Positions 1-61,400 of a stretch of 64,000 nt of DNA are shown here, one piece after another; the stretch's first letter is position 1, and the number at the start of each line of letters is the position of its first letter. The stretch is from NCBI GenBank assembly GCA_905178155.1, contig CAJINV010000002.1, forward strand, positions 11,720,591 to 11,784,590, in the 5' to 3' direction. The DNA is from Amoebophrya sp. A120. Its lineage: Eukaryota; Protista; Dinoflagellata. The notes under the pieces were generated by a model, which had not been told where the DNA came from, searched no databases, and was given only the letters and a program-made list of their open reading frames with translations. Both the position numbers and the translations under genes were made by a program.

Positions 1-3000
1 CGAAGTTCAGCGCCTCGTCCATCGCTTTGGTGGTGCCCGCTCCGCCGAACGTGGTGATGTCAAAGTCGGTTTGCCCGCCGCGGAGCCCGAGCTCCACCAT
101 GGAGATCACCAAGCGGATGCGTTGGTTAGCCACGATCGGTGCCTGGATGTTGATCGAGGCCCCGACCGGGGGGTTCAGCGGGTCCACGATCGCGCCCTCC
201 GGGTTCAAACTCAGCGGCAAGGCCGCCGATTTGAAATCAAACCCTGGCGGATTGTTGGCGACCAGCCGCACCTCGGACGCGTCAGAAACCGGCGTAAACT
301 CGACTGTGATCTCACTGAACGCGCGGGCGGCCTGCTTCGAGCCGGTGAGCGATATACTGACGCTGGAGAGCTGAGGCAGGATTTCCCACGAACGAATCAC
401 CTCACTGGAGAGAATCTGGGCAGTGGGTTGCTGCGACAATATGGTGCTCCACTCGTACACGCCCGCCGAGGTGTCGGTGCCTGATGATAAATTTTGAATG
501 AATGTCGTGCCTTCACCGCATCGCGAACCACCAGAGCGACGCCATTTGATCATTCAAGTGTACTATCGCCATTTGATTTCTTTTCCACCGCTATCAGACA
601 AGCCTCAACAACATCAAAAGAGGACTAAAAAAAATAAAAAACGTCGCACCTAGTAGCGCATCCAGAAAGCAGTTCCACGTGGCTCCCGGAAGGGCACATG
701 GAGGATGGATAATGGACTTGTCAATGCCTCGCCAGTGCCAGATGCGGAAAAAGTTTTCAAACAAGAACGGCGTCTGCGAGGGATTTCTCGTATCAATGCT
801 CAGTTGGAATTGCGTGTCCTTCTCGTGCTGTACGTTTTTTTGATGATTCGAATAAATAAAATTTCAAAGAACTTGTGGGAGCAAGGCGAATGGTGTGAAA
901 CATCTAGCATGCTGGACGGCAGTGCACAGTTTTCGAAATTCGCATTCATTGTTGAATTAAAAAAAACATCAGTATAAGCAATTATTGTACCGCGATGCCC
1001 CCCATTGCGGCCGTCTGAATTTCAAACATCATCAAATTCCTGGTGCAGCGCGGTCCGGTTCGGTGACCGTTCGGCAGGGCAGCCATGTCTCCAAAGTTCT
1101 TCTGGGGGTCCAGCTGCTGCGCAGCGATGGTTTCCAGCGTTGGCAGCCACTTAAAGGCGGAGCACTGTTTCCGCGCCGGCTCGGCGAACTTGGACTCCAG
1201 CTTGAAGCCCGTGGGGGCCTCGATGACCACGATGTCACCCGGGTCCACCCGGTTCGGGAAGGCGAACGTGAAAGTTAAGTCCCGCACCTCCATCATGCCG
1301 TTGCGGACCTGCACGCCAGATTCGTCGCGGTTGACCACCATGGGCACGACGAGGGGGGGCGACCCGCTCCGGATCTCGATCGTGACCGGGTTCACCATGA
1401 AACTCGTCACGTCCGACTCATCCAGCGCCCCGGCGGCCGCGGCGGTCTCGTCCACGAACGACTCCAGCTTCCACACGTACTTGTGGTTCGTGCGCTCCTG
1501 CAGCGGGTTGTTCACCTCGATGTACTATCAAATGCAAAAATGTCTAGGTCTGGAAGAGTGCATGCTTGTCATGCTTGTCTGGCATGATTCTCAAATCTGT
1601 CATGCACGTTACCCAAGAGCGCCACTTTTCTGCCATGCAGAAACGCAGTTTGTCATGCAGAATAGGCAACACCTAGAAGCTCAGAAACTTGTCATGCTGC
1701 GCCAGCACTTGTGGCCTGCTCATGATACGCCACCCAGCATCACAAGTTTCCAGACCCAGACATTTTTGCAGTTGATATGTACACCCGGTAGTCCCGCCCC
1801 GTCTCCATGGAGGAGCCGATCAATTTCAGGTTCGTGATCTTGTCGTCCGTCTGGGACACGCGGCAGCTGGTCTCGTCCTGGCTCCAGCGCCGGCCGAAAT
1901 TCGTGCGCCCCTTCTCGTCGATCCAGTCCAGCTCCTCCACGTGGGCCGTGCACTCGAAGTTGGCGGCGACGAACCGGAAGTTCTGCTGCTGCAGCGACTG
2001 CGCCGCTGCGGTCACGCGCAGAATCTATCCTGAGGAAAAACGTCCCCACACCAGAGTCAATCTGCAACACAAATCTCCAGGTTTTGGGAGTTCTGCATGA
2101 CAGGCTTCCATCTGCAGTGTAGGGCTGGCTAGCAAGTAAAGCCGCACGAGAAAGCCACTTCCTCATCCTGTTTACAGCATTACAAATGCCAGAACACGAC
2201 TGGATATGCCTCTCATGGAGATGCGCATGACAAATGTCCCTGTCCTTGCGCATTTGCATGACAACTCTGGGGTGGGGATGTTTTTACATAGGATAGAATC
2301 CCGTTGATCGGGACCGTGTTCCACGGGCGGAAGGTGAACTATGGCGCTCTCAAACGTTACATTCTCAACTGTTACACGATTTGTCATGCAAAATTGCAAT
2401 TAGTTATCAACACGATCAAGCTGCCTCGCATGACAAGTTTTCGCCGCACTAGATAGCATTATAATCTGCGCCAAACTTGTAATGCAAAAGGCGCAACTTT
2501 CCGCCTTGGATTTTTGCCATTCTTGCATTACAAATCCATGTAACAGTTGAGAATGTAACATTTGAGAATCCCATATGAACCGCACCGGGTTTGACACCGG
2601 GATGCTGTCCGTCGCGGCCTGCCGTCGGGCGGTCGACACCGGCTTCACCTCCAGCTGCGTGAAGGTCCACAGCGTGAACCCGACGAACGCCATGGAGGAC
2701 TCGTCGCTCACGTCAATCGTCCACGTGTTCGGGTTCGGGGTCACCGGCGGATTCGCCAGAATCCCTATCCTAAACGCGTACACGTCGTTGGCTGGAGTGA
2801 TTGTTGTAGGTATTTCGAGAGAACGTTTGCACACAAAAACTACTTGACATCATCTTCTATTTGAATTTCGATTCTACTTCTGCAATAGCACTAGCAGTCA
2901 CGGTTACAGTAACTGTGATCTTTTGTTTGCCAAACCAAGAACTCAGAAAGCGTGTATATTGAATTTCCTCAAAAATTATACCGACTAAAAACGGGCTGTG

Positions 3001-12000: not shown

Positions 12001-12813
12001 GGAGATGTAATCGCTTTGCTTCTGCGAGAGTTTGTTCGCGCTTCTCGTATCATCGACCGAAGACTGCAAAGCCGCCACGGCGTCCTCCCCTTTCCGAGGT
12101 CCTTCTGAACGCAAGGACGGACCTGAAACCTGGGAAGAAGGTCGCGGGTTGTTTGCTCTCCCACCGCTCGGGTTGCAATTCGCGTTCTTGCGCCGAAGCG
12201 AGCGGAGAGTTCGTGCATCGCATGTCGCAAGTGAGCCCGCGGGGCGCTCTGCTCCTCGTTCGCCTTGACAACTCGCAGCGCTGGTCGAAAAAGAGTTTGA
12301 GGATATCACTCCAGTCGGCGATGGAAAATGTCGATTTGCTGTTTCATGAAGTGTTGATGAGGTCGCGGTTCCGTCGAATGCGCTGACACACTCCGAGCCT
12401 CCGCGTTCTCCTATTTTGGCCGTTACGGGATTGGAAACACCATGAGGAGTTCCCGCAGCATAATGTTGCGATCTTCTCGCAGGGGGAGGCGCAGAGGACG
12501 AGGAGCTCCGTATACGGTGCAAAAAACCCCCCAACTCATACATATCCAAGAGAGTTTTCGTGGGCGTGCTGCAACGTGGCACGAGCAGGTACCTGTTTTT
12601 ATCGCCAACGTCACGAAGAGGCCGTCTATTCCTTCTAGTGGTTCTTTCTAATATTGCATCACGCCACGAAAAGATTAACGACCAGGCATTGGCTGTCCGA
12701 CGCGAGCTGCTGCGAGCTTGTTTGCCGTGATTTGTGGCTGCAAGCTCGCGTGCACAAGTGCGCAATCGTTCATAACATAACACATCTCTGCGAGAAAATT
12801 TTGTTTTGGGCAT
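1..12813 (-). CDS. Giant multi-exon secreted/surface-type protein, beta-rich with Cys-containing modules (>3000 aa; 3' end runs off the window; start codon uncertain)
   Basis: The minus-strand ORFs join in frame across predicted GT-AG introns at 10503-10642, 9583-9791, 7665-7814, 6616-6775, 5495-5664, 4485-4641, 3825-3961, 3539-3693, 2792-2981, 828-990 and 481-649, plus three TIR elements (2340-2575, 2026-2295, 1526-1777). A hydrophobic segment (FFSSYLAAAAGLLAGG) lies near 11.5 kb. Recurrent motifs include ICYCD/VCYCQ, LCW/VCW and I.GP.GF. Confidence 0.8.
1526..1777. mobile_element. Introner/MITE family A copy 1 (252 bp), non-canonical intron in the minus-strand gene
   Basis: 30-bp TIR tatcaaatgcaaaaatgtctaggtctggaa / ttccagacccagacatttttgcagttgata (2 mismatches). 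TSD tgtac at 1521-1525 and 1778-1782. Removal joins GRDYRVY-IEVNNPLQ in frame. About 90% identical (manual count) to 43992-44243. Confidence 0.93.
2026..2295. mobile_element. Introner/MITE family B (270 bp)
   Basis: ~32-bp TIR tatcctgaggaaaaacgtccccacaccagagt / actctggggtggggatgtttttacataggata. TSD gaatc at 2021-2025 and 2296-2300. Removal gives NTVPINGILRVTAAAQ in frame. Confidence 0.92.
2340..2575. mobile_element. Introner/MITE family C (236 bp)
   Basis: Long (~50 bp) TIR tatggcgctctcaaacgttacattctcaactgttaca... / ...tgtaacagttgagaatgtaacatttgagaatcccata. TSD tgaac at 2335-2339 and 2576-2580. Removal gives VSNPVRFTFRPWNT in frame. Confidence 0.92.
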
Positions 12814-13950
12814 ATGCCGGAAGGGTTTTCATGCAGCGTATTTCCCCCGCTCTCCTCGCGGCGATGGATCACCGTCATTCACCGCCTGCCGTCCATCTTT
12901 AGCCTCTCGCCACACACACACAAAAAATATTGCTGTCAGATTTTATTGGGTGAAGAAGATTCAGAATGAGCTAGCCTCTTCTGGTCAACACGGTTGTAGG
13001 GTCTATTTCTATACGCAACAAACGAAGCCGCGCCAGTCGCCAGGATTGTCGCAGAATAATTTTACTTACTTCAAATGCCGTTTTGGATAGAGGGGTGGAA
13101 GGTTTGCGAAAATCGAGCTTGCGCTAAGGGAGGATATTGAATTCAACTCGACAAGGGTCGTGCAAACGTTTGGATTCCGGGGGGGGCAAAAAAGTGAAAG
13201 TCCTGTGCTAGGGGTACTCATGCATACATATGAGCAGACCGGGAGTGTAACAAGAAATACCAGGACGCTTTTTCGATACTTGTTGCTTCTCTCGATACGT
13301 CGAAGCAAAGCAAAATCACAACCGACGATGCAAGACAGTCACGACGCAGTTCTCTCACTCTCCTGGGCTCTCGAACTGTCCTCTTCTCGGTGCCAGCGCT
13401 CTCGGTCATACATATGCTCTCGCTCTCATCGCTCGATTACTTTCTTTTCCGTGCATAAGGTCGCGCTTTGTGCATCAGTACTGAAGGCTTACCACTTCAA
13501 GGCTTGAAACGCCACGATGCGACATTTATCTCGCAGAACAATAAAGCACTTTTCCAGTCGCTTGTTTTTTCTGATGAAGATAAACGCGGGCGAGACAGCG
13601 ATGCTCGAGCAAGGTACGATTGCGCCATATATCTTAGAGCTTAGAAGACCAGCTATGGCGTACGCAACTGATGTGCCAGATCGTATCCCCTCCGGGCTTC
13701 TCGGCGGTCGCGCAATTTCGTTCATCATATGAGCCCGCGCTTCCGCACGCAGCTTCATCCCCGCAAACTTGCACAAGCGCCGTCCCGCCGATGGCCGCCC
13801 GCGGGCGCCACCCGGCTCGCCGAAGCGGAAGCCCGCCGCGCGGGAGTTCCACCAAAGCCGACCCGCCCTTGCGAGCTACGGCTTGGCCGCCGGGCCTCCG
13901 CAAATATATCGCGCGGCAGCTAGAAAACACGAATGCCCCGCACGCTAACT

Positions 13951-14273
13951 AGGGCGGGGGAAGGGCAGGGAAGGGGTCGGGAGAAGGCAGGGAGACGAGA
14001 GGAGACTAGGGAGGTGCTAGGGAGGGGCTAGAGAGGGGCTAGGGAGGGGCCAGGGAGGGGCTAGGGATAGGGAGGGGGGTAGGGAAGGGGCAGGGAGGGT
14101 GTAGGGAGGGGGGTAGGCAGGGGGTAGGGAGGAAGTAGGGAGGGGGTAGGAGGGGGGTAGGAAGGGGGTAGGAAGGAGCTATGGGGGACATGGAACACCT
14201 GGAAAATTCCAGGAAGGGGGGTAGGAAGGGGGTAGGAAGGGGTTAGGGGGGCATGGAACACCTGGAAAATTCC
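13951..14273 (+). repeat. G-rich purine tract (agggaggggct / agggggtagg units) with a 22-bp direct repeat
   Basis: Degenerate 10-11 nt G-run repeats with G-quadruplex-type runs. catggaacacctggaaaattcc occurs at 14189-14210 and 14252-14273. Confidence 0.85.
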
Positions 14274-14379
14274 GGAGTGTTGTTTTAGCGGATTTCTCCG
14301 TATTAGAATGGCCCACGATATCACTATGAGAGTCATTTCATGCGTATGCGCTCCCTCACATACCAAAACGCCATCCACG

Positions 14380-14930
14380 CATTAAATTTTTTTCGGCTTT
14401 CAAAAATTTCAAAAAAATTGAAAATTTTTCAAAACGCAAAAAATTGAAGAATTTGCGCGGAGTTAGAGCGTTAAAGTACTGCCAGCCAATAAATATGCAA
14501 TACACTATACATCTGGATGACTGTACTCGTTTTAATTAAGTAGACAAGCACAAAGTCTCAAAATTGTTTTTTTGGAAAATTTTTAAAAATTCCAGGATCA
14601 CTTCTTTTTGCTATATTTATGTGATAAAAACTCGCAATACTACGAGATTGCACTTAGCTGCTTTGAATCGCACAGCCTAAAAGCCTGGAATTCCAGAAAT
14701 TTTGCAATATTTTTCTGAAGTTGCATTTTTATAATTTTTGAATCTTCCTGGAGGTTCTGGATGTGCGGAATATGTTACAAAGAAAAAACACACCAGAGAA
14801 GTAGCTTGCGTATTTGTTTCCTTTCCTATTCTGTGTTTTTTCATGGATTCTTGAAGAATATCAGGGAACTTTCTGAATTTTGTAAATTTTTTAATTTTTG
14901 GAAAATTTTAAAATTTTTGCCCTATATGGA
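14380..14930. promoter_or_regulatory. AT-rich core of the divergent strand-switch region (putative bidirectional initiation zone)
   Basis: Non-coding, dense A/T tracts that are A-biased on the left and T-biased on the right. Lies between the 5' ends of the minus-strand and plus-strand gene blocks. The function is inferred. Confidence 0.4.
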
Positions 14931-15069
14931 TGATCCACATATACTGTTGCGATACAACCAAAGCACGTGCATTATTCTTTGCATTTTCACCAATTACAGG
15001 CGTCCAAATGAAGAAAAACGCGGAAACCGATAGGATGCAACTTCTCAGCTCATTTTCCACGCTCACCAT

Positions 15070-15270
15070 TCTGCCCTCTTTATCCCTACCTCCCCTCCCC
15101 CCCGATCACCAACATCGTCCCACCTCAGGTATACCCTCTTTCTACCCTCCCCATACCCTCTTCCCCCTGCCTATTCCCTGCTTACCCCCTGCCTACCCCC
15201 TGCGTACCCCCTGCCTGCCCCCTGCCTACCCTCTCCGAAAGGGCCCCCCTTCCCCCCTGCTGCCAAGCCC
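15070..15270 (+). repeat. C-rich pyrimidine tract (cccctgcctaccccct units), compositional reverse complement of the 13951-14250 tract
   Basis: Repeated ccccctgccta/ccccctgcgta units resemble the reverse complement of the ggtaggcaggggg units at ~14110. Confidence 0.8.
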
Positions 15271-19399: not shown

Positions 19400-22300
19400 A
19401 TGCCTGTCCGCGCGGCACCTTTATTTCGCTACGATACCACTTGGTGTCTGCTCCATTGCTTCGCTCTGCTGTTCGCTTCACTGCTGGACGCGCGAACCGC
19501 TCAAGCCTTGGAATGCCGCGTGAACTTTCATGGGACCTGCCGGCAGCGGGCGTACTTGCTGGAGAAATCACTGGAGGATCTGGAAAACCTGTGGATCGAC
19601 ATATTACAGTGAAAAATGCCCCCACCCCGGAATTTGCAGAAGTTTGTCATACAAAGTTTCCAAATGAAAGCTTTTTGTCTTGCATAAAAGGATTGCGAGC
19701 GTTTCTGATGCAGAATCTGGGTGCGCAAGGTGCCTTGTGCATAACAGATCCGGCTGCTGTTGGGCTACTTCGCAACACAATAAATTTGACCTATTCAGCA
19801 TGGAAAATTTGTGATGCTGAGATATGCAAGACAGGGAATGTCTCTGTTGGAAAGGTTTGCCATAGAAATGCTCCCAAGTTCGGGGGTGGGGGCATTTTTC
19901 ATTGTAATACGACACGAGATGCGACCGGTCTTCACGGCCAGTGGACACGACAAACCCGGGGGCGCTCGCCGCTGCTCCCCGGAGCTCGGCCCGCTCGTCT
20001 TCGCCGCGTGCGCACGGCATGAACGCTTTGCAAATGAGGGAGCGCCCGTTGTTGTCCAGAAACGAGAACTTCGCTTTAGAGCTGTGGCGCTACTGCGGAA
20101 ACAGCCACGCGGACCCGATCACACTCGAAGTGTTCAAGACCGAGGTCGTGCAAAGCGACGGAACCACGGCAGACACCATCGTACAGGCCGACCAGTGGCC
20201 GCGAAGGGAGGATCTGGAAAAGCTGCAGAACCCTTACAACCAGTGGCTTCAGTTTGGTAAGACCGCGTACGAAATCAACGCGGGCGCCGCGCCAGACCAC
20301 CGAATGAGCTTCCATTGGGGACAGTACGAGCTCTCGCAGTTCTCGGACTACGAATTGGGTGCGGAGGGCTGCGACGACGTCAGTAATGGCATAGACTGGC
20401 GGGTCCTAAGGAGGTTTTTGCTCGTGCCCGACCGGAAGTGGCAGTGCGAAAAACTAGTCCGCGATCCGGCAAAATGGAACTTGATCACGATACTAGGTTG
20501 GTATAGTTTTGGTCTCTAATGATATTCGCTTGTTGTTTTGTATTTGTTCCTCTTCCTGCGTAGCACTCTAACTATAAAACATCCGGTGCAGCCAGCGTGT
20601 GTGTGTTTGCTGCTAGCTTGTTACGTCGAGTCAGCTGAGCAGGCCAGAAAGTGTCAGAACATCAAACCACTCCGCATATAATTCTGACAGAACAGTCCCT
20701 GGAACACCCGCAGGGAAACTTTCCGTACACGGGTGTTCGCGACGACTGCTACCTGGGCACGGTGTCCTTCTTCCTCCTCGACACCTTGTGCGCGGAAACG
20801 CCGGACGACTTTTTCAACAAACTGAAAAACGTCCTGCTCTACCTGGAAGGGTTGATCTTTTACGGCGACGCCGACAGTGAGGTCCGGCAGGAGTTTGGGG
20901 ACAGCAAGGTCGAAATGGGCAAGGCGATCCACGACTATGACAGTGAACATTCAGAGGAGCAAAAGTACCGCGCCAGCGTCTACTCCGGGGACGTTTTCAA
21001 CGCAACTGGTATTTCCGCTGGACGAAATGCTGACGCTGCAACAGAGGTGGCGGCGTCACCAGACACAACTTCGCAAAAGTTTTCGACGAAGGAGCAGGCT
21101 GCCTTCGAGTGGAACCGGGGAAAGGAACACTGGCAGCAACTGCAGGGCGGTGGAGACGAGGAAGTACTAGAGCAGGGCAGTCTAATGTCCAACACTCAAG
21201 CTGGTACTTCTCCGGGAGAAGCCGCCGAAGGATCCTCGCCACCCTCTGCAACTTACCCAGGCTCGCACACGATTCAAGATTACATGCAGGGCACGAGTGC
21301 AGCGGGAGAGACCCGGTCGGCGAGCGAAAAGACCGCGCGGAAGGCGGGTAGCAACTTGCACGCGTACTCGTCGCTCGTGATGCAGTCCGGATGGCCAGTC
21401 TTTGTGCTGTTCAATGACATCTCCGAAGTGGTCACAGCGAACATGCTGCCGCACTTGCCGAACCAGTGCGACTTGCTGGATACGGACTCCGACGTGGCGA
21501 AAAATTCCAACTTGTTGGAGTTCTTCACCAACTACACGAAAGGCGTTTATGTCGGCGTGGAAAAAGAGCATCACATCCCGCTGGTGAATCCGGACCGCGT
21601 CCTGAAATTCGAGGAGGCCGTGAAACAGTGGGGAAAGAGTAACCAGGGAGATGTGTTAACGACCGATAGTAGTACAACTACCGCAGAAGTCACGCAGCGA
21701 CGGCCGCCCACGGAGGTAGCGCAGGCAAAGGACTTTCAAGGAAGGGCGTTCAGTTCGGAGTCATCAACAACATCTCCGACAGCAGACAGTACCGCCACTA
21801 GCAGTCGCGCACAGCTCCCGCCTTTACTTGACTTGGAGAAGGTGCTGGTTCGTTCGAGACAAGGGAATCCCACCTACCGCGCAAAGATCTCCGTGGACGC
21901 GGAGTCTCTACTCAACGACCCGCGGAACTGCCCCTTCGCGCAAGCGGCCGCGGCCTTCGTTGGCGCCTACAAGGAGGTCGACCTGAAAGATCGGCAGGCG
22001 TGGGTGTTCCTCGCGTTCGACTTGCTTAAGTCCTGGGACGCGTTCGCCACGGACCGGTCCGGGTACGACCGCCGTTTTTTCTACGATTTGCTGACGACAC
22101 GATGGCCTATTTTGCGGTTCCTGGCCAGCTGGTTCGAGGAGCAGCAGGTGTTTCAGTTTCCGGGCCGGTACGACCGCAAAGAACAGCTGCTGCGCGCACT
22201 CAAGCAGAACCAAATTTTCATGAGTGGGAAGGACTTTCCAGGCATTCGCTCCAACACGGACCATGAGACCTGCAGGAAAAATGAAGAAAATTTTCTGCCC

Positions 22301-36347: not shown

Positions 36348-37622
36348 ATGAGTCCGGTTACGGGAGACAGATGTGAAGATGAAAATGAGGTGGTGATAAT
36401 TCTCACACGGGAGACGGGCAGCAACGCCAAGCTGCAAGATGCGGTACTTGAGGGGATACACCGACGTGATGCAGAACTTGGACAGAAAATCGCAGTGCGG
36501 TTCCTGGAAGCGCCGGCCGTGTGTTTCCGTCCGCTGCCAATCGAGCGGAAGTTGCTCGAGGAAGCCGACGGAGAAAGATGCTTTTCTTGGGTGTGCCTCA
36601 CCTCGCCCGAGGCTGCGAGGCAATTTTGTCGTGCGCTAACCGCAGACCCAGGGCTGTTTCTCGCTTCTCTCCTAGGTGGAACGACGGGCCGTGCGAGCGG
36701 AGATGAAACCGCCACTGCTAAACATGTTGAGGCGGCAAGGATAGCCTGTGTGGGTGAGGCGACAGCGGAAGCGCTGCAAGTAGCTGTTGAGACGATTTTT
36801 TCTTCTGCTGCAGGAAACGAAGCTGGTAGTACCAATTCTGCTCCTGCCACACCCGCGCAGCGGCAAGAAAAAGTTGAGAAGCAGCTGCAAAAAGTCAAGC
36901 AGTGGGTGGAAACGCACAGTGCCGACTGCTTCATTCCCCCAACCGCAAATGCTAAGGCGCTCGGGAAAACGCTGCCGATCCGAGGACAGAAGGAGCCTGT
37001 CGATGGTGAGGGCTCCGCGCATTTTCCAAAAAATGTCAACCGAGTCCTTTTGCCCTGCAGTTCAGAGCAAAGGCCCGATTTAGCGCAGGGATTGACTTCG
37101 CGAGGCTTCGCCGTCGTGTCTCTCGCTACGTACGCTACGGGTGCGGTCGAAAGTCCTCCGTCGGAACTGGTGGAAAGCGGTTGCTTATATACAGGGCCGA
37201 CACACACCGTCGTGCCGAAGAGCACCCGGCCCACGTGTTTGTGGACATTTGCGTCCCCCTCCGCTGCGCAGGCGTGTTCGCGATGGTGCGAGCAGGGGAC
37301 AGATTTGCAGACGGGCTCGGTGCAGGCCGCTGCCTGCATAGGCGAAACGACTGCGGAAGCCTGTCGCAGGTTCTTTCCGCACGCAGAGGTTTTTTGTCCG
37401 GACGACAGTCCGGGGGTAGGTCCGTGGGCGGAGACAATTCTAGCGTGGCTCGCTACTAATACTAAACATGGCAAAGAGCAGCGGACTGGAGGTTGTAGTG
37501 CAGGAACAAGAACTGTAGTAGAAAATGATGATGTTCCGACGGCCCAAATGAGGAAGGGGGGGGCCGCCGAGAGCGTCCGAACTGCGTCGGGGGGGCGTTG
37601 CACGATAAGGCAAGCGGCTTAG
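36348..37622 (+). CDS. hemD: Uroporphyrinogen-III synthase, plant/algal type
   Basis: Motifs ILTRETGSN, WVCLTSPEA, ACVGEATA, PPTANAKAL, GLTSRGFAVVSLATYAT, ASPSA and ACIGETTA appear in the order typical of UROS/HemD. Confidence 0.88.
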   Translation: MSPVTGDRCEDENEVVIILTRETGSNAKLQDAVLEGIHRRDAELGQKIAVRFLEAPAVCFRPLPIERKLLEEADGERCFSWVCLTSPEAARQFCRALTADPGLFLASLLGGTTGRASGDETATAKHVEAARIACVGEATAEALQVAVETIFSSAAGNEAGSTNSAPATPAQRQEKVEKQLQKVKQWVETHSADCFIPPTANAKALGKTLPIRGQKEPVDGEGSAHFPKNVNRVLLPCSSEQRPDLAQGLTSRGFAVVSLATYATGAVESPPSELVESGCLYTGPTHTVVPKSTRPTCLWTFASPSAAQACSRWCEQGTDLQTGSVQAAACIGETTAEACRRFFPHAEVFCPDDSPGVGPWAETILAWLATNTKHGKEQRTGGCSAGTRTVVENDDVPTAQMRKGGAAESVRTASGGRCTIRQAA

Positions 37623-41083: not shown

Positions 41084-44000
41084 ATGTACATGTTTGGTAA
41101 AAAAGGCCAACAGCAGCTGCAACACGCGAACAATAAGACCAGGAGCGGAGACGATGATGGCGTCGATGTTCCGAGTCGGAGGTCGAGCAGTCCGATAGCC
41201 ATGGGCCGGGAGAGCACGACCTGCTGCGAGTCGGATTCCGGGATGGAGAAAGTCGCATCCTGGGAGGTAAGGGATGTGGATTTTGCAAGCCAAGGAAGCG
41301 CAACAAGAGCGCGCGCTGCCAGCCGCGAAGATGCGAAAAACGCTGAGGATCGCCTGCTGCCGCGGAACCGTTCCTCTGCTCGCGAGACGGTGAGCTCGTA
41401 CGGCGGAAATTTGAAGAATGGACCGCCCCCATTCTCGCAGCGGAGCAGTCGCCGGAATTCCGTGGCGTCAGTGACGCCGATCGAAGGACGCGATGACGAC
41501 GTGAATTCTGAGCGCAGCGAAACGAGCATATTCATTCCCCATCACGACGGCTCTTCCGGCGCAGGTTTCGGTAGTGGGTTTTACGGGTCCATGATGCAGG
41601 ACCAGATAATGCAGACGCAGGGGAAGGCAGCCGTGACAGAAGCAGAAAATGCGGAACAAGAGGAGATGGCGCAGAACAACGACCACGATGCGCAAAAGCG
41701 GGTCAGTTGCACGGCGTCTTGGGGCTTTTGGACGTGGGCGGCGGTCGTGTTGGCGACCCTATCTATTGTGGGTGCGCTCGCGGTGGGTATCTTCTACCTG
41801 GTCAAGCACTTCCAGGGTAGTGGCGGAAGTGAGCAGAAGATGCAGCTGCTCCAAATAGCGCCCGAGTTTTCTTTCAAGGACCTGCTTCTGGCCATATCTG
41901 CATCCGCTGCAGTCAACAACGGCGGGGCTCTGCAGCAGCAGGCGGCGGCTGACGTGGATCCTGCCGCCCCCGACCAACCAGAAGCAGGTGTGCAGAGCGT
42001 ACACTTTTTGGCGCCAAACAGGTCGGTGCAGGGAAAGCAGACGGCGATGATGCACAGAGAAGCGACAGAGATGTCCACCGCGTTCCAACACCTCGCCCAG
42101 CACCCGCACGAGCACTACCCGGAACATTGCAAAGTGGGGAACAACGATCGGTTGACGCCCAACCAGAAGCTGCTTTGGATGCGGCTGGTGAACATGCCAA
42201 TCGGCCCACTGGATCGGTTGGGCGCCGAAGGGCGGGAGTCTGTCATCCGGGTGGCGGACGCTCGGAAAACGTCGCTGAAGGAGCTAAAGCAGCGACTCGA
42301 AGCCGGTCTCCGACAGCATGTGAAGAACCTGAAGACGTTTCTGAATTTATTCGTCGATGCGGCGGAGCAACAGCCGGGCGATTTGGAGAACTACGTGGAT
42401 GCCGTGCTGGAGCGCGCCAAGATTCCCGTTTCCGAAGTCGGTGAAAAGGCATGCATCGCGGAGCATTTTCTGCGCATGCTGCAGTTGATTTCGGAAAAGT
42501 TTGAGCGCGAACAGCAAGGTTCTACACCACAGGGAAACGTCGACCCAGACGGACCCAACGGGGAGACGCGCACTGCCACCGTCCCCCTGCTGGCCCTCAG
42601 TTTGTGCGACGAAAGCGAGCAGCTGGAGCGGCTGTGCGAAGACGACAACGTGAAACTTTCGAAACTGCTGGCGGCGTTGCCTCGCGACGCCACGTCGGTG
42701 AGCTCCGCGCAGCGCGAAGACGACTCCGGTGCGGGCGCGGGCACGCAGCGCCGCATTATTAAAGTGGCACTGGCACGCGGAGACGAGGACGATGGACCGC
42801 AGCAGGCAAACCAGGGCGCACTGCTGGTACCAAGTACGCCGGACCAGGGATGGGCCATCGGCGGATTCCGCTTCCGCTGGGCGCAGGTGGACGTGACGAG
42901 CGATACCGCGAATGTCGGCTCGGAGCCACAGTTTCGGGAGGAAAGCACCGTTTCCTCGATGCTGGACAGCATGAATGCCATCACGTGGGACAACGCCAAA
43001 CACAAGGCCAGAGTGCAGGTGCGGAAAAGCTTTGGTTTCTGTTGAAAAAGATAAACAGAACAAGTTTTGTTTCTGTTGATGATGCTGTTCTTAATTCTTG
43101 TTTACGACTGTGCATGTATGATGATGCATTTCGAGGGTATAATTGAGTCGGTGTATTTTGACCGAGTACCTGTCACAGTTTGTACTTTGTAGCAATCATC
43201 TCCTGCTGCCGCACACATGCTTCGTTTTTTTTGCTGAAAGTATGTTCATTTTTAATTTTCAAATTTAGGTCGTGTACCAGCGCGAGAACGACCAGCCGCC
43301 ATTGCAAGTCGTGGAGCAGAATTTCAGCCCGGACGAGGTACGCAGGCATTCGCAGGATGCTGGCGGCGACGTGGCTTCGATGCCCCCGTTGCAACAGTGG
43401 CTTCACTGGGCGAAGTTGCTCTTGTTTCGGTCGGCGGTGATCGCGCACGAAAAAGCCGTGTTTTTTGAACTCGAGGGATTCCCGCTGAACGGCGCCGACG
43501 CTGAGGGCAACACGTGGTTCGAGGTGTTGGGAGACGCGAACACCGTATTGCGGGAGACGGACGTGATCGCGCTGTCGCACGACGACCTAGCGTGGCACAA
43601 GATCTTTCGTCCCCTGTTCGCGGACTCCTGCGAGGGGGCGCGGGCGAAGCAAAACCCGAACAAACGCGGCGGTCAGCCGTGTTCGTTGGAAGAGAAAGCC
43701 ATTCCCTATGTGCAGTTCCAGGCGGCGGACGACAATAACGACATCCCGGCTCATTTTCAGTACATCGCCACCCACCGCACCCGCATCCGCGGCCGGAAGG
43801 CGAGCTGCGGGCTCGCGGCCGAGCCCCATCGCCAGTGCGTGTACTTTCGTAGCTTGAACGGCAAAAGGTATAAGATCCCGCTGCGCACCGACGACCACCT
43901 TCGGGAGCTGGTGCGGGAATCCGGTCAGGACCTTGTTGGCGCCGACTGGCGCTGGGTTGCGGCGCGGAAGGAGTTGCACCTCCACCACAAGTATCAAATG

Positions 44001-47000
44001 CAAAAATGTCTGGGTCTGGAAGAATTCGTGTTTGTCATGCTTGTCTGGCATGATTCTTAAATCTGTGATGCACGTTCCCCAAGAGCCCCATTTTTCTGTG
44101 ATGCAGAAGCGCAGTTTGTCATGCAGAATAGCCAACACCTAGGAGCTCAGAAACTTGTCATGCTGAGCCAGCATCTGTAGCCTCATGATGAGACGCCACC
44201 CAGCATCACAAGTTTCCAGACCCAGACATTTTTACTTTTGATAACAAGAAGGCGGCGGCAAGTGCGGCCGCAGCTCCCGTTGGATCAAACACTGCTGCGC
44301 CCCCACCGGCGGGGAAAGCGGTAGCGCCCGCGGCTGCCGGAAATGGGGCTGCCGTTATTACAATGAAAAATGCCCCCACCCCCGAACTTGCAAGCATTTG
44401 TATTGCAAATCTTTCCAAATGAAACATTCGCCCTCTTGCGTGTATCAGCATCACAGATTTCCGATCGTGAATAGCAAAAATTTGTATTGCAAAAGATCCC
44501 AGCAAGAGCGGTGCTTGTCATGCAAGCGATGCGAAACACGACTAGAATCTGCATCAGAAAGATTCGTACTCCTTTCATGCATGACAAAAAGCTTTCATTT
44601 GGAAACTTCGCATCACAAATTCTTGCAATTTCAGGGGTGGGGGGCATTTTTCACTGTGATAGCCGTTGTAACGAATCCAGGCAGTGCAGCTGGCGCAGGA
44701 CAAGGCGCGGCTGCACCGCCCGGAGCGGTGACTAGTGGAGTTGGACTCGGGACGGAGTTGACGCAGGCGGTTTCCAACGTAGCCAACGCCCTTTTCGACG
44801 GTTCTGGCCAACACGGGAACGGGCAAAGCCAGAGCGGCCAGAGCGGGCAGCTACTTACGACAGCAGGACAGGTGGTTGGAAGTGCGGCAGCTACCGCGGT
44901 CGGTAGTTTCGCAACGGGGCTCCAGCGGGGCTGGCAGGCTGGACGTACGGCACCACCTCCAGGCGCTATCGCAACCGCAGGGACAAATCCAGCGGCCGGG
45001 GGGGGCGCAGTTGGAGCCACGAACCCAGGTGCGGCCGCTGTTGCGGCGCCGGAAGGATTGGGGCAGCGCATGGCACAAGCGGTCGATAACCAAATCCCGC
45101 ACCTGGCAGCAGGGACCGAGGCCATCGCGGCGGCGGTGGGCGAAGGGGCAGTGGCCGTCTTGAGCGCCGCACGGCAGGGCGCGCTGCAGGGAGCGGGCTT
45201 GTCGTCTGCCGTCAACACCGGAGCCGCGGCCCCCGCAATTACTGGCACCGCCAACGCCGTAGCAACTCCGAATATCGGCAACGCAGCAACGCCGACCGGC
45301 AACGCAGCTTCGTCGCAGACGATGCAGGACTCGATCAGAGCACGGATTCCAGAAGTAGTAGAAGCCGTCCAGCCGGTCGCCGATATGGAGAGAAAAAAGT
45401 TTATCATAGTCACTAATTTGCAGGGTTTGCATTACAAATTTTCTTAGCATCACAAATTTTCCTTGTATTGCAGAAACACTAGGGAAATCCCTAATAAAGT
45501 TTGGCTGTGATGCATTTTTACGCATGACAATTGCAAAAATGCGCATCAGTGATCGTGACGAACTTTTTTTGTTTGATAGCCGAGGCGAGCGGCGCACTAC
45601 TACGAGCCAGCGCAATAGCCGCGGGAACTAGCGTTGCCAGAGGGCTTTTCTCGACCGCGGATCCTGCAGCCACAGTACCGGCATCACCGCAAGTAGCACC
45701 TCCGGAAACAGGGGGTACCGTGGCGACACAAGCGGGCGCGGGACTCGCGGGTGCACCGCCAGGACCAGTAGCGTCTGTGCAAAATGGCGCAACACCTGCC
45801 CCCGCGACCCCTGCGCAGACGACGCAGGAGTGGATCAGAGCACAAAGTCCAGTTGTGGTAGGAGCGATCGAGCCAGTTGCGCGGGAGGGCGGTGCATTAA
45901 TACGAGCCAGCGCAATAGCCGCGGGAACTAGCGTTGCCAGAGGGCTTTTCTCGACCGCGGATCCTGCAGCCACAGTACCGGCACCACCGCAAGTAGCACC
46001 TCCGGAAACAGGGGGTACCGTGGCGACACAAGCGGGCGCGGGACTCGCGGGTGCACCGCCAGGACCAGTAGCGTCTGTGCAAAATGGCGCAACACCTGCC
46101 CCCGCGACCCCTGCGCAGACGACGCAGGAGTGGATCAGAGCACAAAGTCCAGTTGTGGTAGGAGCGATCGAGCCAGTTGCGCGGGAGGGCGGTGCATTAA
46201 TACGAGCCAGCGCAATAGCCGCGGGAACTAGCGTTGCCAGAGGGCTTTTCTCGACCGCGGATCCTGCAGCCACAGTACCGGCACCACCGCAAGTAGCACC
46301 TCCGGAAACAGGGGGTACCGTGGCGACACAAGCGGGCGCGGGACTCGCGGGTGCACCGCCAGGACCAGTAGCGTCTGTGCAAAATGGCGCAACACCTCCC
46401 CCCGCGACCTCTCCGCAAACGACGCAGGAGTGGATCAGAGCACAAAGTCCAGTTGTGGTAGGAGCGATCGAGCCAGTTGCGCGGGAGGGCGGTGCATTAA
46501 TACGAGCCACCGCGATAGCTGCGGGCCGGAGCGCTATCGAGGGTCTTTTTCCGACCGGGAACAGTGGAGCTGCAGCACCTGCAACACGGACGGAGGACCC
46601 GGAAGGGATCGCAGCTACGGCCACGGTCGCGGCGCATGCCCCAGTCGCTGGGGGTGCAATCGCGCCGCCGGATCCCGCTGCGGTGCCTGTCGCCGCAAGC
46701 CCAGAACAGCGGACGACGGCAGAATCTATTGCGGCACAAATACCATACGCCACACAAGCGGTCGCGCCGGTCGCGACAGCGGCTGGACAACTTCTTCGCT
46801 CAACTGCGATAACAGCTGGGGAAGGTCTCGTGGAGGGCCTTGGCTTTACGACACGCGCCGGCACGAATCCGCAGGCGGCCACAAGCGCTGCTCAAGAACC
46901 GCAAGTACCCGCGACAGGCGCAGAAGCGTCCACCCTTGGTGCACCAAGTGAAGATCGTCCCGGACAAGAAGTCGGAGACCAGTCGTCGTCCGTGATAAGA

Positions 47001-53011: not shown

Positions 53012-53211
53012 TTTGAGCTAATAGCAAAAAGCTGTTCGTGGTGGATATGTACTTACTTGCGCTCCTCAACCGCAATGCGCAAGAGAAAGGTATTCACTTC
53101 GGATTTTCAGCGTGTGAGGATCCGCTTTGATTTTTTGGAATCACCCCCCTGTAGACCGTGCGCGATGTCTTAGCGATAACGACGTTGGATTCACGTACTT
53201 ATTCTAGCCCT

Positions 53212-55858
53212 ATGGACAAAATGCGTGCACGACAATACAGGTCCTATTCGTTCCCCAGTCGTTCCGTGGGGTGCCGGTTCGGGACGCTGCTGCTGAGCGG
53301 GATTCGCTGTGCGTTGTTGCTAATGCCTCGGGTTCTTGTTCTGTACCTTCACAATGTTGTCGCGTCGGCGGTTCCGGAGGAGCACGAACCGCCCGAGCGG
53401 TTCACTGCAGCGAATATCGAGCCGTATTCGGGAGTGTCGTGGATGCTGGGCCGCATCGTCGCCGCAGATGTGCTGGAGCGAGTGCTGTTTCTGGGATACC
53501 AATTTCCGGCGGAGGTGGAACTGCGTCGAGAAGCAGTGGATATGGAGGACGAAGAGGAGACTGCGTTTCTTCAGGAGGATAACGCAAGCTACTCAGGTAA
53601 GGCAAGATCCGCGAGGACGGCAGAGATGTTGCCAGCCCAGTTGCAATTTGACTCCTACTTTGTCCACCTCGCGCCAACTTACGTGCGGCAGATGCGGTTG
53701 ATATTCGCAGACGTGCGTCGCGTCTTCGGGACGCAGTTAGAAAGAAGCGAAGCTGCCTTGCGAAGCTTTTGGCGTGCTGCCTTGGACGACTTGTACGCCG
53801 GAGGGCGGGGGGGCTCCGCGGATTTGCCAGCACAAAGCGCGAGCGACGTTCGCCAAAATATGCCTCTGTCACCGCTGCTGCGCACCAAAACCGAGACCAA
53901 TGCCGAGCACCAACGAAACATGTACCATCGTGGGCTGCGGAGCGTGCCGGTGCACTCGTCCGCGCCGGAAGGCCAGGCTCTGTCGGAGGAAGCGCAAGCG
54001 GGTGCCGCCGCCACCTCCTGGGAGATGTCAGTTTCTGAAGTCTTTCACGCGTTCAACTACTCAAGCACCCTAGCCGTAGGACCATCATCTGCGAGCCCTT
54101 CTGCTCCACAAGAGCGGTCACCGCACAAAAGCGCATATGTGACAAACAAGAGATACCGCTTGATAGACGCAGCGCTCGCACTGCTGCACAGTGACCGATT
54201 TGGGCCCTTCACGGCGACGCTGCTCGAAGCCGTCCGCACAACCGTCGAATGGGCCGAGGAGCGACGGTCTGACGACCCGCGCGGCGCAGTCATTCAGTGG
54301 ATCAAGCCGGGGAAGCGGCTCTTCGAGGTGCGGCAAACTCCGCAGACCGTGACGGTCGCGTTGCAGCGCCGCGACCCCTACTTTGAGACATTTCCCTCGG
54401 CGTCCGTGTCGGAAGAGGGGCAGAACCCGGTCGAGTACCTGTTTCTCAAGTCGTGTCTGACCAAGAGTTTTTTCCAGTCGGGCGTGCGGCTGGAGGACCT
54501 CGACATGGCCAAGCAGCGGAAAGAGGAGTCTGCCAACATCGGATTCGCGGTAGCCTCGACGGTTCTGCGGGAAGTGGACGCGCCGCACGCACTGGTCAAC
54601 GGGGGCCTGCTCAACCTCGTCCGCCACTGCACGATCAAGGACTGGGACATCGATTTTGTGGTAGACCGGAAGTGGATGCTGACTAGGAGCACGGAAACCT
54701 CGGCGAACGACCGCTTTCTGTTCAACAGCGAGCGGATATCTGCCAGATTCGGCTTGTACCGGCTTTACGCCTTGTCGGTGCAATCTTGGATGAGTGCTTT
54801 CGGTGGTCGCGCCGGACTAGAACCAGCACAGGCGAAAGAATTACAAACTGAAGCCGTACTGCACGGCAGTAGCAGTGGCAGCGGTCTTCTGCCTCCTGGC
54901 ACCTCTTTGACCACGTCCGCAACGCCAACGACCGCAGACTTGAATGTCACTGACAGAGAGAAGGATCTCGCGGCGCAGCTCGTGACCATGGAGCGGGCGG
55001 CGGACCCGAGTGTCGACCAGAAAATCGTCCCAATGGACGCCGCGTGGCAGGAGAGCTCGGGATCTATGCTGGACCTCTTGCCGCAGGTGGTGGAGGAGTC
55101 CTATTACTTCGACCGCTATGGGTATGCAAGAAAAAAACTGTGTAAGGGTAAGTCTGTGATGCAGAAAATGCAAAACAGTTACGCTTGTCATGCTCTACAT
55201 GCATGATAGGCTCGCTTCCTACGTGTTTTCCCGTCCTATCTGCGCATGACAAGTTTTTCCTGTCATGGCAGACGAACTTGTGATGCTGTTTTCCCAAAAG
55301 ACCTACACTAACACAGTTTTTTTCTTGGATAATGGCCGCACCGTGGAGACCTTGGACGTCGGAATTTATGACGAGCTACGGAACAACGTGGACTTAATGA
55401 AGGTAGACCTCTTCTACGGACGGGTGTCTCCGTCGCTGGGCGTTGACAGTACAGGAAATAAGCAAGCACGAGCGACGCGGCCTGGCATCTTTGACTCCGG
55501 TGAGGGCGATGACGAAGATGCTCTTGAAGGAGGAGCCACAGTTGGAAGAATCGCGGGGGAAGAACACATAAGCAGTGGCAACTGGAACAGCTGCGGTTTA
55601 TCTTACTACATGTGTGGAAACAAAACGATAGAGTGCTGTCTTGCGCCCTTTACGAGGACCGTGCTGAAGCCGCGTCCGCGAATCGTTGAGCGCATCGTAA
55701 CTTTCAGCTACGACGAAAACAAGGTCGTGCGTATTCCTTGGCCGCCGGACGCTGCTCTCGATCATTACTACCGCGGAGGGTTTATGTGGCCCCAACCTGG
55801 GTACGGAACGGAGAAGCATGTGCTGGCATGGAATACCGCGTGTAAGGTTGCTCTCTGA
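53212..55858 (+). CDS. LicD/fukutin-like nucleotidyltransferase-fold protein (two exons)
   Basis: NGGLLNLVRHCTIKDWDIDF resembles the LicD GxLLGxxRH...DxDxD motif. C-terminal IPWPPDAALDHYY. The two ORFs join across the introner at 55123-55331. Confidence 0.7.
55123..55331. mobile_element. Introner/MITE family F (209 bp)
   Basis: TIR tatgcaagaaaaaaactgtgt / acacagtttttttcttggata. Imperfect TSD atggg (55118-55122) / atggc (55332-55336). Removal gives FDRYGRTVETLDVG in frame. Confidence 0.9.
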
Positions 55859-57807: not shown

Positions 57808-58472
57808 TCTTTGAAAAGGCATGTTTTCCGACACTGTGAGGTTCTTGAACGAACGAGTCTTTCCGACTTCAGCTGTTAGCAGCTAGCAAAGGGAAGCGAC
57901 GTGATTGAAGAAAGTACTTGGGATTCGTACAACCAAAAACCGCACTAAACTTTAAACAAAGAGTTTTTTGGGTTATCATTGCCGGAGCCTGTTCGGCAAT
58001 GACGAACTACATGCAAGGTTGAGGTTCACTTTTTCTCGTGCCGTAGCTGCAGATCTGGTTTTTCTTTGTTTCTGTACTGAATTTGTGCTGATCTTCACGA
58101 ACAGCCTCGTCCTTGAGTCGTCGAATAGATCTCGGATCATCTTCTAGCATGCGAATCGTATTTTGACTTTGAAGTAGATCATGATGAAGATCCTCGAGTG
58201 CAAATTGGCTCTTACTTCTATGATCTTCGTTTGTGCTTTTTTCTTTTTTGGGATGTAAGAATCACAGTCAGTGGCACAGGTAGGTTAGAGTGACCTGCCT
58301 ATCTCGTCTAAAAAATCCAAGAGCGAAATCCGTGCGTAAGAACACAGAAGAATAATTCTCAGCAGTAAAACTAGCAGTAGCAACCCATCTGTTTAGCGAG
58401 ATGTTGCCTCGCACGTTGCATGTTTTGGTTTTTGTTGTTTTTGTTGGCGACCTGCGTAACTAGGGAACTTTT

Positions 58473-61400
58473 ATGGTCATGACTGCTTCCACGATGCTTT
58501 GGCTCGTCAACTCTATCTTCGTGCTCTTGAGTTGCGAACGCTTGAGTTTTGCGTCGTCCGCGAACCGAATTAGGCACCAGCGTTTCCTGACGCTCGACGA
58601 GTACGACCGGTTTCTGGCCCAGAAGCGGGTCCAAACATGGACGAAGCAACTCGCGAAGAGAAAAAAAAGCGTGGGAGCTTCCGTGTCAAAGTTTCGGCAG
58701 TGGGTCGCGGCGACAAGGAATGTTCGGCGGAAGACGCCATCAGCGGCAAGAAGCGAAAGACAACAGCACCATCCAGAGAGCCGCGTTGTGCCTCCTGTAG
58801 CCGACGATGAAGCTGCAGAGGAGCCGCATGCGCCCCTACGCTTGCAGCTCGAGCGCAAAGTGCGGAGATGGATGCGCAGCGTGCGCGATTTGAACCGCAA
58901 CGAGATGCTCTTCGCTGTGATGGCCAGCCGCACGATGGAGTGGCGGGCGGTGGTATCCAGGAAAAAACACCCATCCCCATCTAATTTGTGATGCAAATAA
59001 AACATGCATAATTTGCACGGTCGTTTGTCATGCAAAAAATGGATGGGGATTGGTGTTTTTTCCTGGATAGGTGGCGATGGAGGACCTGGTTCTGAAGAAA
59101 ATGCCGCACGTGCGCTACGTCGTCGAAGAGTACCTGGACAACCTGCCGCGAGAGCGGCAGTGGAAGGTGCACTTCCGCAAGCAGGCTTCGCAGGTCCGGA
59201 AGTCGAAGAACAAGGACGTGTGGAAGGTGCGGAAGGAGTACATGAAGGTGCAGCGGCAGCAACTCGAGTTCATCACGCAGCACCCGCATTTGCCGCGGGA
59301 GATCGAGTGGGTCATGTTGCTGGACGACGACACCTGGTTTGACTGGGACCAGATGAGCCGCATGCTGCGCACCAAGGATCCGACCGACCCGGTGCTGTTT
59401 TCCTACATTTTGTCCGACGCCCAAGTCATCGGCTACGACTACCCGTGCGGCGGCGCCGGCATGGTGATGAGCCGCGCCGCCTACGACCTGATCTCCAAGC
59501 CGTTGGCCGACGACTCGATCTGCCCCTTTGTGAACTTCAACGACCTGACCCTGGGACTCTGCCTGAGCACCTTTCAGGTGCCGATGGTGCATTCGGAACT
59601 GATGCACTGCATGCCCACTCTGAACATGGCCAGCCGCTCGTGGGAGAACCTGAACGACGTGCAGGAGCAGGTCGCGTTTCATCGGTTAATCGCGTCCACC
59701 AACCTGGATGGTTTGATCGACATGCTTTCCGACCGCTCGCAGGCGCTGGAGCAGATCGCGGGCCTGGGGGCTGGCTGCCGCATGGCGCCGAAACTTGCGA
59801 CCAGTGACCACGTGGACTCGCGGATGCTCATGCTGCACGAGCGCATGCTACCTAGATTCGTCGAGAAATGCAACCGAGCAGCGGGAACAGGAGCCTTCGC
59901 AGGGCCGACAACATCCGGCCATGCAGCGTTCTCTAGCAGCACTAGAAGCAGTCTCGTGTCCTCGGTCGCGCGCTTCAATCCGGAGGCTGCGTGGCGAAGC
60001 GATTTCGATCCGGGGCAGAGCAGCCTGCTGTTCCAGCTCTTCGACGACTTTCATATTCCGCACATGCAGGCCCGGAAGTTCGCTCCCGCCGACTCGATCT
60101 ACAGTCGGGCGACAGCGAAAACCTTGCCAGTTTGGCTCGAAGGCCTTGTCCGAGCAGAAGGTACTTCTAGAGCATCATCCCCTAGCGGCGGAACCACGGA
60201 AAGTTACAGCCGGCGCCACGGCCGCCCAACGGCGCGGTTGCAGATGCGGTGGAAGTTGCGGCTCATGGCGCAGCGCGCGTTTCCGGCCGCAGACCGGATC
60301 TCCTTCAGCAAAGACCACGAGTTCACGCGCGTGCTGCGCCAGCAGCTAGACATGGACGGCAAGAAGACAGAAGAACTCGATGAATTGCGCCTCGAGGATG
60401 CGTTAAGCAAACGCTTTTCGACAGATAGAGTTTCTGGCTTACCGGACTGGGTCGATGTCGTGGTGCGTAATTTCAGGGCGATGTCCCCCCAGCGGAGCCA
60501 TGGAGTCAAAGATCTTCGCACGAGCAGTTCGAGTGCAAGGGACAAGACCAAGTGTGGGAGTTCCTGGACCTTTCTCAGCTTCTACGCGAGTACAACTTAC
60601 GTGAACTTGGAGTTGATGCAGAACCTTATCCGTGACTTGCACGAGCTCTTTCCTTGCGAACGATCCGTGTCAAAGGACAGACTCGATCTTCGTCCCGATA
60701 GTGCTACCAAAATAGAGGAGCTGCACGACTTGATTTTCGATGACGATCCCATTGCAGCAGCGAAAAGTAATCACGCCGACGAAAGAACAAGCGAGATGAA
60801 CTTTGACCACACTGCGGAACCTCAAAAAAAGCAAGGGCGCGACGAAAATGCGGACGACCCCACCACTTTCGACCTGGTGTCTGGCCAGCCGCCTTTAGCC
60901 GTTGCCTACATTCACACCGAGTCGCACATCGAGCCGGCAGCTGGGGTGCTGCTGAACGAGCAAGGAATTCGAAGATTGGAGACGTGCACCGCGAAGGATC
61001 AGCGAAGAATCGAGTTGCACCCGGAGATCCACAAGTTCATTTCCGTCACGGACGAGCTGAGCGTGAAGTTTTGGAAGCAGAAGAAGCTCCACTTGCCGCA
61101 GTTGCAGCTGCAGGACAACCTGCTCGGCGTGGACGTCTATAACGTATTGAAATTCTGTGGCGTCTTCCTGGTGCACTCGCGCCGCTTCGCGCCGAATCTC
61201 ACCGGTTTGATTACATATTCCACTTGGCGCCGGCCGCACCGCGCTCCTATCTCGGAGCTGGTCACAGCCGGGCAGGTTTGGAATCACCAGCGCATGGTGG
61301 CACTCACTATTTACGGCGAGGAACGGCAAAAGTGGCTCGCACTGGAGCAGACTGGTGAATTTGTCGAGCCAGAAGCTGCAGCAAGAGACAGTAAAGTCCG

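Follow-up and report, generated by a model that had tools for sequence, protein, structure and literature searches.

Introners and Related Mobile Elements

The introners of Amoebophrya sp. A120 have been described as about 30,000 elements grouped into 1,954 families (PMC7789003). The accessible text of that study gives them non-canonical splice sites, short flanking direct repeats and inverted ends composed of TAT, seven looser bases and at least three A, with a mean of about 240 nt for non-canonical introns. The elements analyzed here are of similar length and have the same properties: TAT-N7-AAA ends, a flanking direct repeat and, as seen for two elements and deduced for two more, excision from RNA without canonical splice sites. 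This match suggests that the window belongs to A120. The difference is that the same text describes the ends and repeats of 3–5 nt, whereas an internal motif, a spacing rule and a uniform 5-bp duplication do not appear in it. It reports no transposase in A120 and argues against general mobilization by a transposase.

Two other groups of elements are close to ours. A120 family 38, as tabulated in the available part of PMC12130899, is a TIR DNA element of about 810 bp that likewise has a 5-bp duplication and TA/TA termini; it contains integrase-like ORFs resembling Copia/Gypsy proteins, and its likeness to our elements comes from this table listing rather than from sequence. Most other A120 entries there belong to the "TIR DNA, unknown" superfamily, and one is a Mutator element with an 8–9 bp duplication. 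In their ends and duplications, our elements also resemble IS3EU/GingerRoot, which, in the consulted parts of PMC10045372 and PMC6839031, share the TA..TA termini, the inverted ends and a duplication without base preference. However, the IS3EU/GingerRoot duplication is usually 6 bp rather than 5 bp, and GingerRoot inverted repeats are 100–150 bp long versus about 30 bp here. The term "subterminal" is absent from the main texts of both papers.

Repeated short motifs inside the ends, with imperfect palindromes and an unlike layout at the two ends, are found both here and in piggyBat (PMC11707139, accessible part), where similar binding-site arrays in Ac, Tol2, Tag1 and Tn7 are cited by title. 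In piggyBat, the sites serve a single element with the transposase it encodes, whereas here the same motif is common to 13 end classes and extends over the whole short element. Our search of accessible article text and of supplements available as text found no description of the internal motif. Searches on Amoebophrya introners returned no report of a subterminal motif or of shared internal motifs, and for the motif string combined with transposons the titles among the matches listed concern other systems. The motif strings are also absent from the supplement text available for PMC7789003 and PMC12130899.

Elements in the Window

The analyzed window is the whole stretch of 64,000 nucleotides. 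A motif-blind scan identified nine elements in it, with TAT…ATA inverted ends and a 5-bp target duplication; seven of them were recovered too by a scan without the TAT requirement. TA..TA termini are present in all nine, and the duplication is perfect in eight. Family letters A–G are those of this analysis and may differ from those of the original prediction. Motif counts called strict refer to TGT(C/G/A)ATGC on both strands.

Element A1 (1526..1777, 252 bp, duplication TGTAC) has 30-bp inverted ends, lies in a minus-strand gene and carries five strict motifs (1567+, 1598+, 1651+, 1690+, 1737-). Element B (2026..2295, 270 bp, duplication GAATC) has four, at 2095-, 2177-, 2225- and 2256-, as does element C (2340..2575, 236 bp, duplication TGAAC), at 2382+, 2428-, 2478+ and 2525-. 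Element D1 (19602..19909, 308 bp, duplication CGACA) contains a single strict motif, 19810+, along with seven matrix sites of lower score. Three further elements are A2 (43992..44243, 252 bp, duplication ACAAG), 90% like A1, with six strict motifs between 44033 and 44203; D2 (44356..44661, 306 bp, duplication GCCGT), with four (44448-, 44516+, 44579-, 44610-); and E (45384..45578, 195 bp, duplication GCCGA), also with four (45429-, 45447-, 45506+, 45522-). Element F (55123..55331, 209 bp) has the imperfect duplication ATGGG/ATGGC, with one mismatch, and four strict motifs (55155+, 55186+, 55244-, 55279+), and element G (58954..59069, 116 bp, duplication GGTGG) has two in the same orientation (58987+, 59026+). 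Such short, non-coding, multicopy elements with inverted ends and a target duplication have the features of non-autonomous TIR transposons (MITEs).

A further 321 elements were taken from 153 loci (L001–L153) of a metagenome assembly; about two-thirds of them belong to the end class used to fetch the loci. In one run, 13,772 contigs matched three elements with their flanks, a figure that is not a copy number. Of the resulting 330 elements, 322 were kept for clustering, the eight of at least 450 bp having been dropped beforehand; conservation tests used families of at least five copies (22 families) or at least four (270 copies). A occupies end positions 11–13 in 89–95% of 642 ends, with class C deviating; TAT was required by the finder. 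The 13 end classes differ in their inner inverted ends, and families B and D, as well as E and F, were grouped in the same classes.

CACTA transposons have CACTA/CACTG termini and a 2–3 bp duplication, and hAT transposons typically have an 8-bp duplication, with 5 bp in the hAT5 subgroup. TAT termini and the 5-bp duplication do not agree with CACTA, and the duplication typical of hAT is likewise not seen, although a hAT5 element may be considered. The hAT/CACTA label of the original prediction does not fit these ends and duplications; the nearest elements are IS3EU/GingerRoot and A120 family 38.

Distribution of the Motif

The nine elements (2,144 bp) contain 34 of the 37 strict matches in the window, and three (21568, 25687 and 49379) fall in the remaining 61,856 bp, an enrichment of about 327-fold. 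With one element per family, 27 matches were observed, whereas 2,000 dinucleotide shuffles gave 0.43 on average and never more than 3. In a blind search, the best gapped 8-mer was TGTNATGC, with 27 copies in all seven families; in 200 shuffles, the best reached at most 9 copies and 6 families. Outside the elements, 9,800 bp of DNA with a GC content of 48% or less contained no match, and neither did the five ordinary introns skipped by an RNA contig. The motif is present in 315 of the 321 further elements, including 116 of the 120 with ends outside the fetching class. The full site reads A-Y-Y-T-G-T-V-A-T-G-C, on either strand.

These counts agree with most of what had been predicted about the distribution: every window element has at least one strict match, the 116-bp element has exactly two, the motif is rare outside the elements, and it is enriched over DNA of matched composition. 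The expectation of five or more copies in families A, C, E and F held strictly in family A. There are four strict sites in each of C, E and F, and with one-mismatch variants C and E reach five, whereas F remains at four.

Arrangement of Sites

Sites facing inward peak at 36–37 and 44–48 bp from the tip (family-weighted, 62 families). When each of the 62 families is represented once, 27 of 108 same-orientation pairs lie 31–33 bp apart; 4.8 were expected, and none of 2,000 permutations reached this number. These representatives are related, which makes the p values optimistic. The spacing recurs outside family A (15 of 57, 2.4 expected), when each end class contributes a single element (6 of 27) and in the seven families of the window (6 of 24), with 0 of 1,000 permutations in each case. 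Of the suggested spacing periodicity, the 31–33 bp recurrence stood; a 10.5-bp period did not reach significance in the set reduced to a single element for each end class (p 0.24), and 16 bp fits as a period too. A weak inverted half-site, GCA, occurs 16 bp downstream of the motif, at 16 of the 78 sites outside family A and 14 of the 65 within it (next best offsets, 5 and 7). Some element tips read as the reverse motif, a likeness that is weak outside a few end classes. In 102 of the 330 elements, strict sites have a single orientation.

Conservation and Descent

The motif core differs from the family consensus at 4.3% of positions versus 14.5% at other interior positions, and it is the lower in all 22 families; the inner inverted end, at 5.5%, behaves like the core. 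The ratio of core to other changes is 0.20 on internal branches versus 0.40 on terminal ones (Fisher p 2.5e-5). Copies were also divided by age with a split-half test, since binning on the same sites biases the ratio. From copies with the fewest to those with the most private changes, the private-change ratio is 0.88, 0.62, 0.48 and 0.33; the first quartile is indistinguishable from neutral (p 0.57), and a flat error rate of the metagenome assembly would mimic its value. The terminal-branch ratio is still 0.40, and host selection could give the same.

The families had been called otherwise unrelated. Their interiors indeed do not align: with motifs and ends deleted, 33 of 34 cross-family pairs have z of 2.0 or less, and the exception, A1–F with z 7, reflects a brief match centred on a motif variant that the deletion had left in place. 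However, TAT-N7-AAA-like tips and the 5-bp duplication are common to all, and some families align end to end through their motifs. Because of these shared ends and the same duplication length, all families likely constitute one superfamily.

Removal from RNA

At A1, an RNA contig skips 257 nt, the element plus one duplication; at F, the RNA joint 55117 to 55332 skips 214 nt, the element plus 5. For B and C, removal was deduced jointly from contig coordinates (516 nt). At G, RNA contigs stop at both borders, and no contig bridges it. The run is presumed to be RNA, which a skipped GT..AG intron supports. Of 170 sites scored, 148 have their reading frame best restored by excision of the element plus 5. 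The duplication provides no fixed splice dinucleotide, G being first in 54 of 159 oriented elements. As a separate candidate, the duplication was considered as a source of an AG acceptor, as it would be in six of the nine window elements; this failed on the 159 oriented elements.

By transcript strand, the 159 oriented elements carry 258 versus 218 sites (p 0.07; family orientation p 0.15), and no strand-specific signal placed at the 3' splice site, of the branch-point or enhancer type, is apparent from these counts. Elements with a single site orientation run 27 one way and 21 the other relative to the transcript, and among 252 tests for strand-biased 5-mers none stood out beyond one at p 0.0009. 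The degenerate base is identical in the two end copies in none of 12 representatives, where 36% would be expected, and in 35 of 119 copies, where the expectation is 45%; because it matches below expectation, the two copies do not behave as an RNA helix. In folded RNA, 78% of motif bases are paired versus 62%, a comparison made without a shuffle control.

Role of the Motif

A shared protein-binding site of the subterminal transposase type had been proposed, and this part of the original prediction gains from the fixed distance to the tip, the 31–33 bp spacing and the conservation on internal branches, which make the motif a candidate site. Judging from sequence patterns, the motif is probably a double-stranded DNA site for the mobilizing protein, needed for transposition, with an integrase-type transposase or a cofactor as its likely reader. 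Tips that read as the reverse motif, the integrase-like ORFs of family 38 with its 5-bp duplication and TA/TA termini, and the subterminal arrays of other transposons speak for this reading as well. One transposition machine might serve all end classes. It would load on the motif arrays, possibly along one helix face, bring both TAT ends together and insert the element through a 5-bp staggered cut. Copies losing sites would stop copying, so that the motif is retained even as the intervening filler becomes too divergent to align. For excision from RNA, the likely guide would be the pairing of the inverted ends and not the motif. A source of the machine was sought: no transposase domain was found in 25 scanned ORFs from long copies and low-GC ORFs (612 listed), and no autonomous copy among the loci examined. 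Nesting of elements or unrelated internal sequence accounts for the eight longest copies, and no Pfam domain was detected in the ORFs scanned from two of these. Scans of viral contigs for A-type ends and for three-motif arrays found nothing.

The prediction had also offered a splicing mark, read on RNA or on DNA during transcription, that recruits a cutter of introns without fixed GT/AG. Exact removal at A1 and F (and, as deduced, at B and C), the restored frames and the variable dinucleotides speak for such a mark, as does the failure to detect U1 snRNA in either of the Amoebophrya strains A25 and A120 reported in the available text of PMC7789003. The conservation persisting on terminal branches points the same way, as does the slightly better preserved core of copies in coding context compared with non-coding-like ones (ratio 0.44 versus 0.62; p 0.15, noisy labels). 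However, non-coding-like copies are equally rich in strict sites (3.4 versus 3.2 per element), 6 of the 330 elements have no strict site, and private change is near neutral in the least diverged quartile. We consider this explanation unlikely; a site on double-stranded DNA is the likelier because conservation is mostly on copy-making lineages, strand is ignored and no covariation is seen.

All of the DNA-level evidence would fit equally well a host chromatin or DNA-bending factor that binds the motif as a transposition cofactor, or selection on the elements to carry the motif. Such a factor accounts for the sharing of the motif across end classes with differing inner inverted ends and for the absence of a transposase reported for A120; near absence of the motif from ordinary host DNA is not what a general host site would show, and some tips resemble the motif, so we regard this possibility, too, as improbable. 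It is quite unlikely that a single protein, possibly a host-domesticated integrase-type transposase, reads the motif on DNA both for copying and, during transcription, for marking the element for exact removal. A functionless relic of common ancestry, or of internal duplication of a 31–32 bp unit, agrees with the common tips and duplication length and with the end-to-end alignments, and a duplicated unit would yield fixed spacing. It is very unlikely and largely refuted, as the filler between sites is unalignable across families, whereas the core shows only a third of the variation, in all 22 families.

Implications

The accessible text of PMC7789003 leaves the movement and splicing of A120 introners as open questions. 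A single conserved site with one spacing rule suggests that the families share one mobilizing machine. The motif offers a DNA bait for the copying protein and could be used to search for the autonomous element; its mutation is a way to test transposition against splicing. If the dual-role protein were true, it would mean protein-guided splicing for tens of thousands of non-GT/AG introns in a parasite without a detected U1 snRNA.

Distribution of the motif

The window is eukaryotic DNA in which long GC-rich coding stretches alternate with ordinary introns and a few genes are recognizable; a domain scan of 10 ORFs recognized Fringe-like, DXD glycosyltransferase, and HemD domains in three of them. 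A finder based on inverted TAT…ATA ends and a flanking duplication, and making no use of the motif, identified nine elements of 116-308 bp: A1 (1526-1777), B (2026-2295), C (2340-2575), D1 (19602-19909), A2 (43992-44243), D2 (44356-44661), E (45384-45578), F (55123-55331), and G (58954-59069). The 5-bp duplication is perfect in eight elements and retains four of five bases in the remaining one. The tips read TAT, then seven looser bases, then A's, the same pattern as that described for the introner ends of Amoebophrya sp. A120 in PMC7789003, which suggests A120 as the host. The window elements belong to the known A120-type introners.

The strict motif TGT(C/G/A)ATGC occurs 37 times in the window, with 34 matches in 2,144 element bases and three in the other 61,856. 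With one element per family, dinucleotide shuffles yielded a mean of 0.43 strict matches versus 27 observed, and a blind gapped 8-mer search recovered the same motif, above any gapped 8-mer in shuffles (at most nine copies). The controls suggested with the original prediction, composition-matched DNA and introns, contained no strict match in 9,800 bp of low-GC non-element window DNA or in five intervals skipped by an RNA contig. The observation behind the original prediction holds: the motif is repeated in the elements and rare elsewhere.

Independent copies were obtained by scanning metagenome contigs with one end class and not with the motif, which gave at least 153 loci, all from one assembly. 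Their BLAST matches to the window are short and lie at element positions (68-91% identity among the 25 longest of 313 listed). The finder, which made one match in 76 shuffled loci, extracted 321 distinct elements, of which 315 have a strict match (median three), as do 116 of 120 elements with end classes other than the fetching one. Strict-match density is 11.7 per kb in element-like DNA versus 0.29 per kb in the rest of these loci; among 60 of the 99 outside matches listed, many are clustered or adjoin unpaired ends. A matrix built from 62 family representatives reads A-Y-Y-T-G-T-V-A-T-G-C and carries 14 bits; T is almost never the base at V. This relaxed form is less specific, because at a score of at least 8 it finds 26 window positions outside elements and 45 within.

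The supposed unrelatedness of the families holds for interiors and fails for ends. Once the motifs and ends are removed, z is ≤2.0 for 33 of 34 pairs from different families; however, the 330 elements form 13 end classes, all with the common tip pattern and duplication, and B and D belong to one class, E and F to another. The families are best regarded as one superfamily.

Other features were also observed in the window. The remains of an element-like end (TAT, seven bases, A run) lie at 12511-12860, where no partner end, duplication, or strict motif was found. At 13950-15260, an AT-rich core is flanked by G-rich and C-rich 11-mer arrays facing each other, around which neither TAT ends nor a duplication was found; a 1,104-bp metagenome element (L019:505-1608) resembles it in inner layout and differs in sequence. 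Three 300-bp tandem copies, 97-98% identical, begin directly after element E (45584-46483) within a long reading frame. A dispersed repeat with ATGATGATG occurs at 37501, 38377, and 39778.

Arrangement of sites

Sites that face inward are most frequent at 36-37 or 44-48 bp from the tip. A distance of 31-33 bp between sites in the same orientation is far above chance in all five subsets tested (27/108, 15/57, 8/25, 6/27, and 6/24). At 16 bp downstream of the motif, GCA is enriched, which is how an inverted half-site would start. In our own reading the 31-33-bp spacing may correspond to three helical turns, although a 10.5-bp period fails with one element per end class and a 16-bp lattice fits too.

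In copies that have the A-type end (window 1735-1777) but other interiors, seen as loose ends in sequencing runs X6 and X10, the motif adjoins the end; X10, which contributes such copies, does not cover the gene at this window position. Three long metagenome copies with extra sequence (L025:632-1465, L026:5314-5770, and L048:571-1051) carry (ATG)n or (AATG)n runs directly beside the ATG in a copy resembling the motif, a possible sign of a second element or of repair using the motif.

Removal from RNA and role of the motif

In a contig from run X6, position 1519 is followed directly by 1777, so that A1 and one duplication are missing, and its coordinates imply equivalent removal of B and C. At F, 209 + 5 nt are skipped at a joint from 55117 to 55332 and the final base of the right-hand duplication is retained, which places the 5' cut upstream of TAT; the imperfect duplication around F (55118-55336) locates this cut within the upstream copy. 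Among the allowed registers at F, one has a GT start and none has GT..AG. No joint of this kind is listed for the DNA-like run X1, whose contigs run into the element. Removal of the element plus 5 nt is the best frame restoration in 148 of 170 metagenome sites above threshold (245 examined), and no fixed GT or AG was found at these sites.

Comparison of copies suggests selection on the motif. The core is less variable than the filler, that is, interior bases outside it, in all 22 families (4.3% versus 14.5% overall), and its deficit of change is stronger on internal (0.20) than on terminal (0.40) branches. In run X1, at the positions where A1 and B depart from the motif (1633, 1565, and 2103), most matched copies agree with it, among 40 of 148 rows listed. 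In a split-half test the deficit vanishes in the quartile with the least divergence (0.88, p 0.57) and is strongest, at 0.33, in the most diverged one; errors in the assembly and sparse sampling may obscure this pattern.

The original prediction proposed a protein-binding site, either for a transposase or for recruitment of splicing. We favor the former: the motif is probably a DNA site for a mobilizing protein, arrayed inside each end. Such a protein would bind the arrays. The quartile pattern is as expected if inserted copies accumulate mutations without constraint and further copies arise only from those whose sites are intact. The slightly better conservation of copies in coding context, which is not significant, would suit a splicing mark; this explanation is unlikely, however, given the absence of significant strand bias in 159 oriented elements, the unbiased orientation of families relative to the transcript, the degenerate positions in the end copies, which lack the agreement that a helix would require, and the 102 of 330 elements with the motif in one orientation only. 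Motif bases are paired more often than filler in folds of 120 elements (78% versus 62%), as expected of complementary repeats in any case. Binding of a host cofactor seems equally improbable, and a relic is the least plausible explanation.

As to the source of the predicted mobilizing protein, a domain scan of 25 ORFs found no transposase, and PMC7789003 reports none in A120; PMC12130899, however, describes one A120 family that has TA/TA ends, a 5-bp duplication, and ORFs resembling integrases. By analogy, the elements would behave as non-autonomous transposons with arrays of subterminal sites, which are known from other transposons. TA..TA ends are shared with IS3EU/GingerRoot, but the usual duplication there is 6 bp, compared with 5 bp here. 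Nor do the elements fit CACTA.

No mention of the internal motif, its spacing, or its pattern of selection was found in the text of the freely available papers and supplements searched. The motif is real, and this shared internal motif is a new feature of already known introners.
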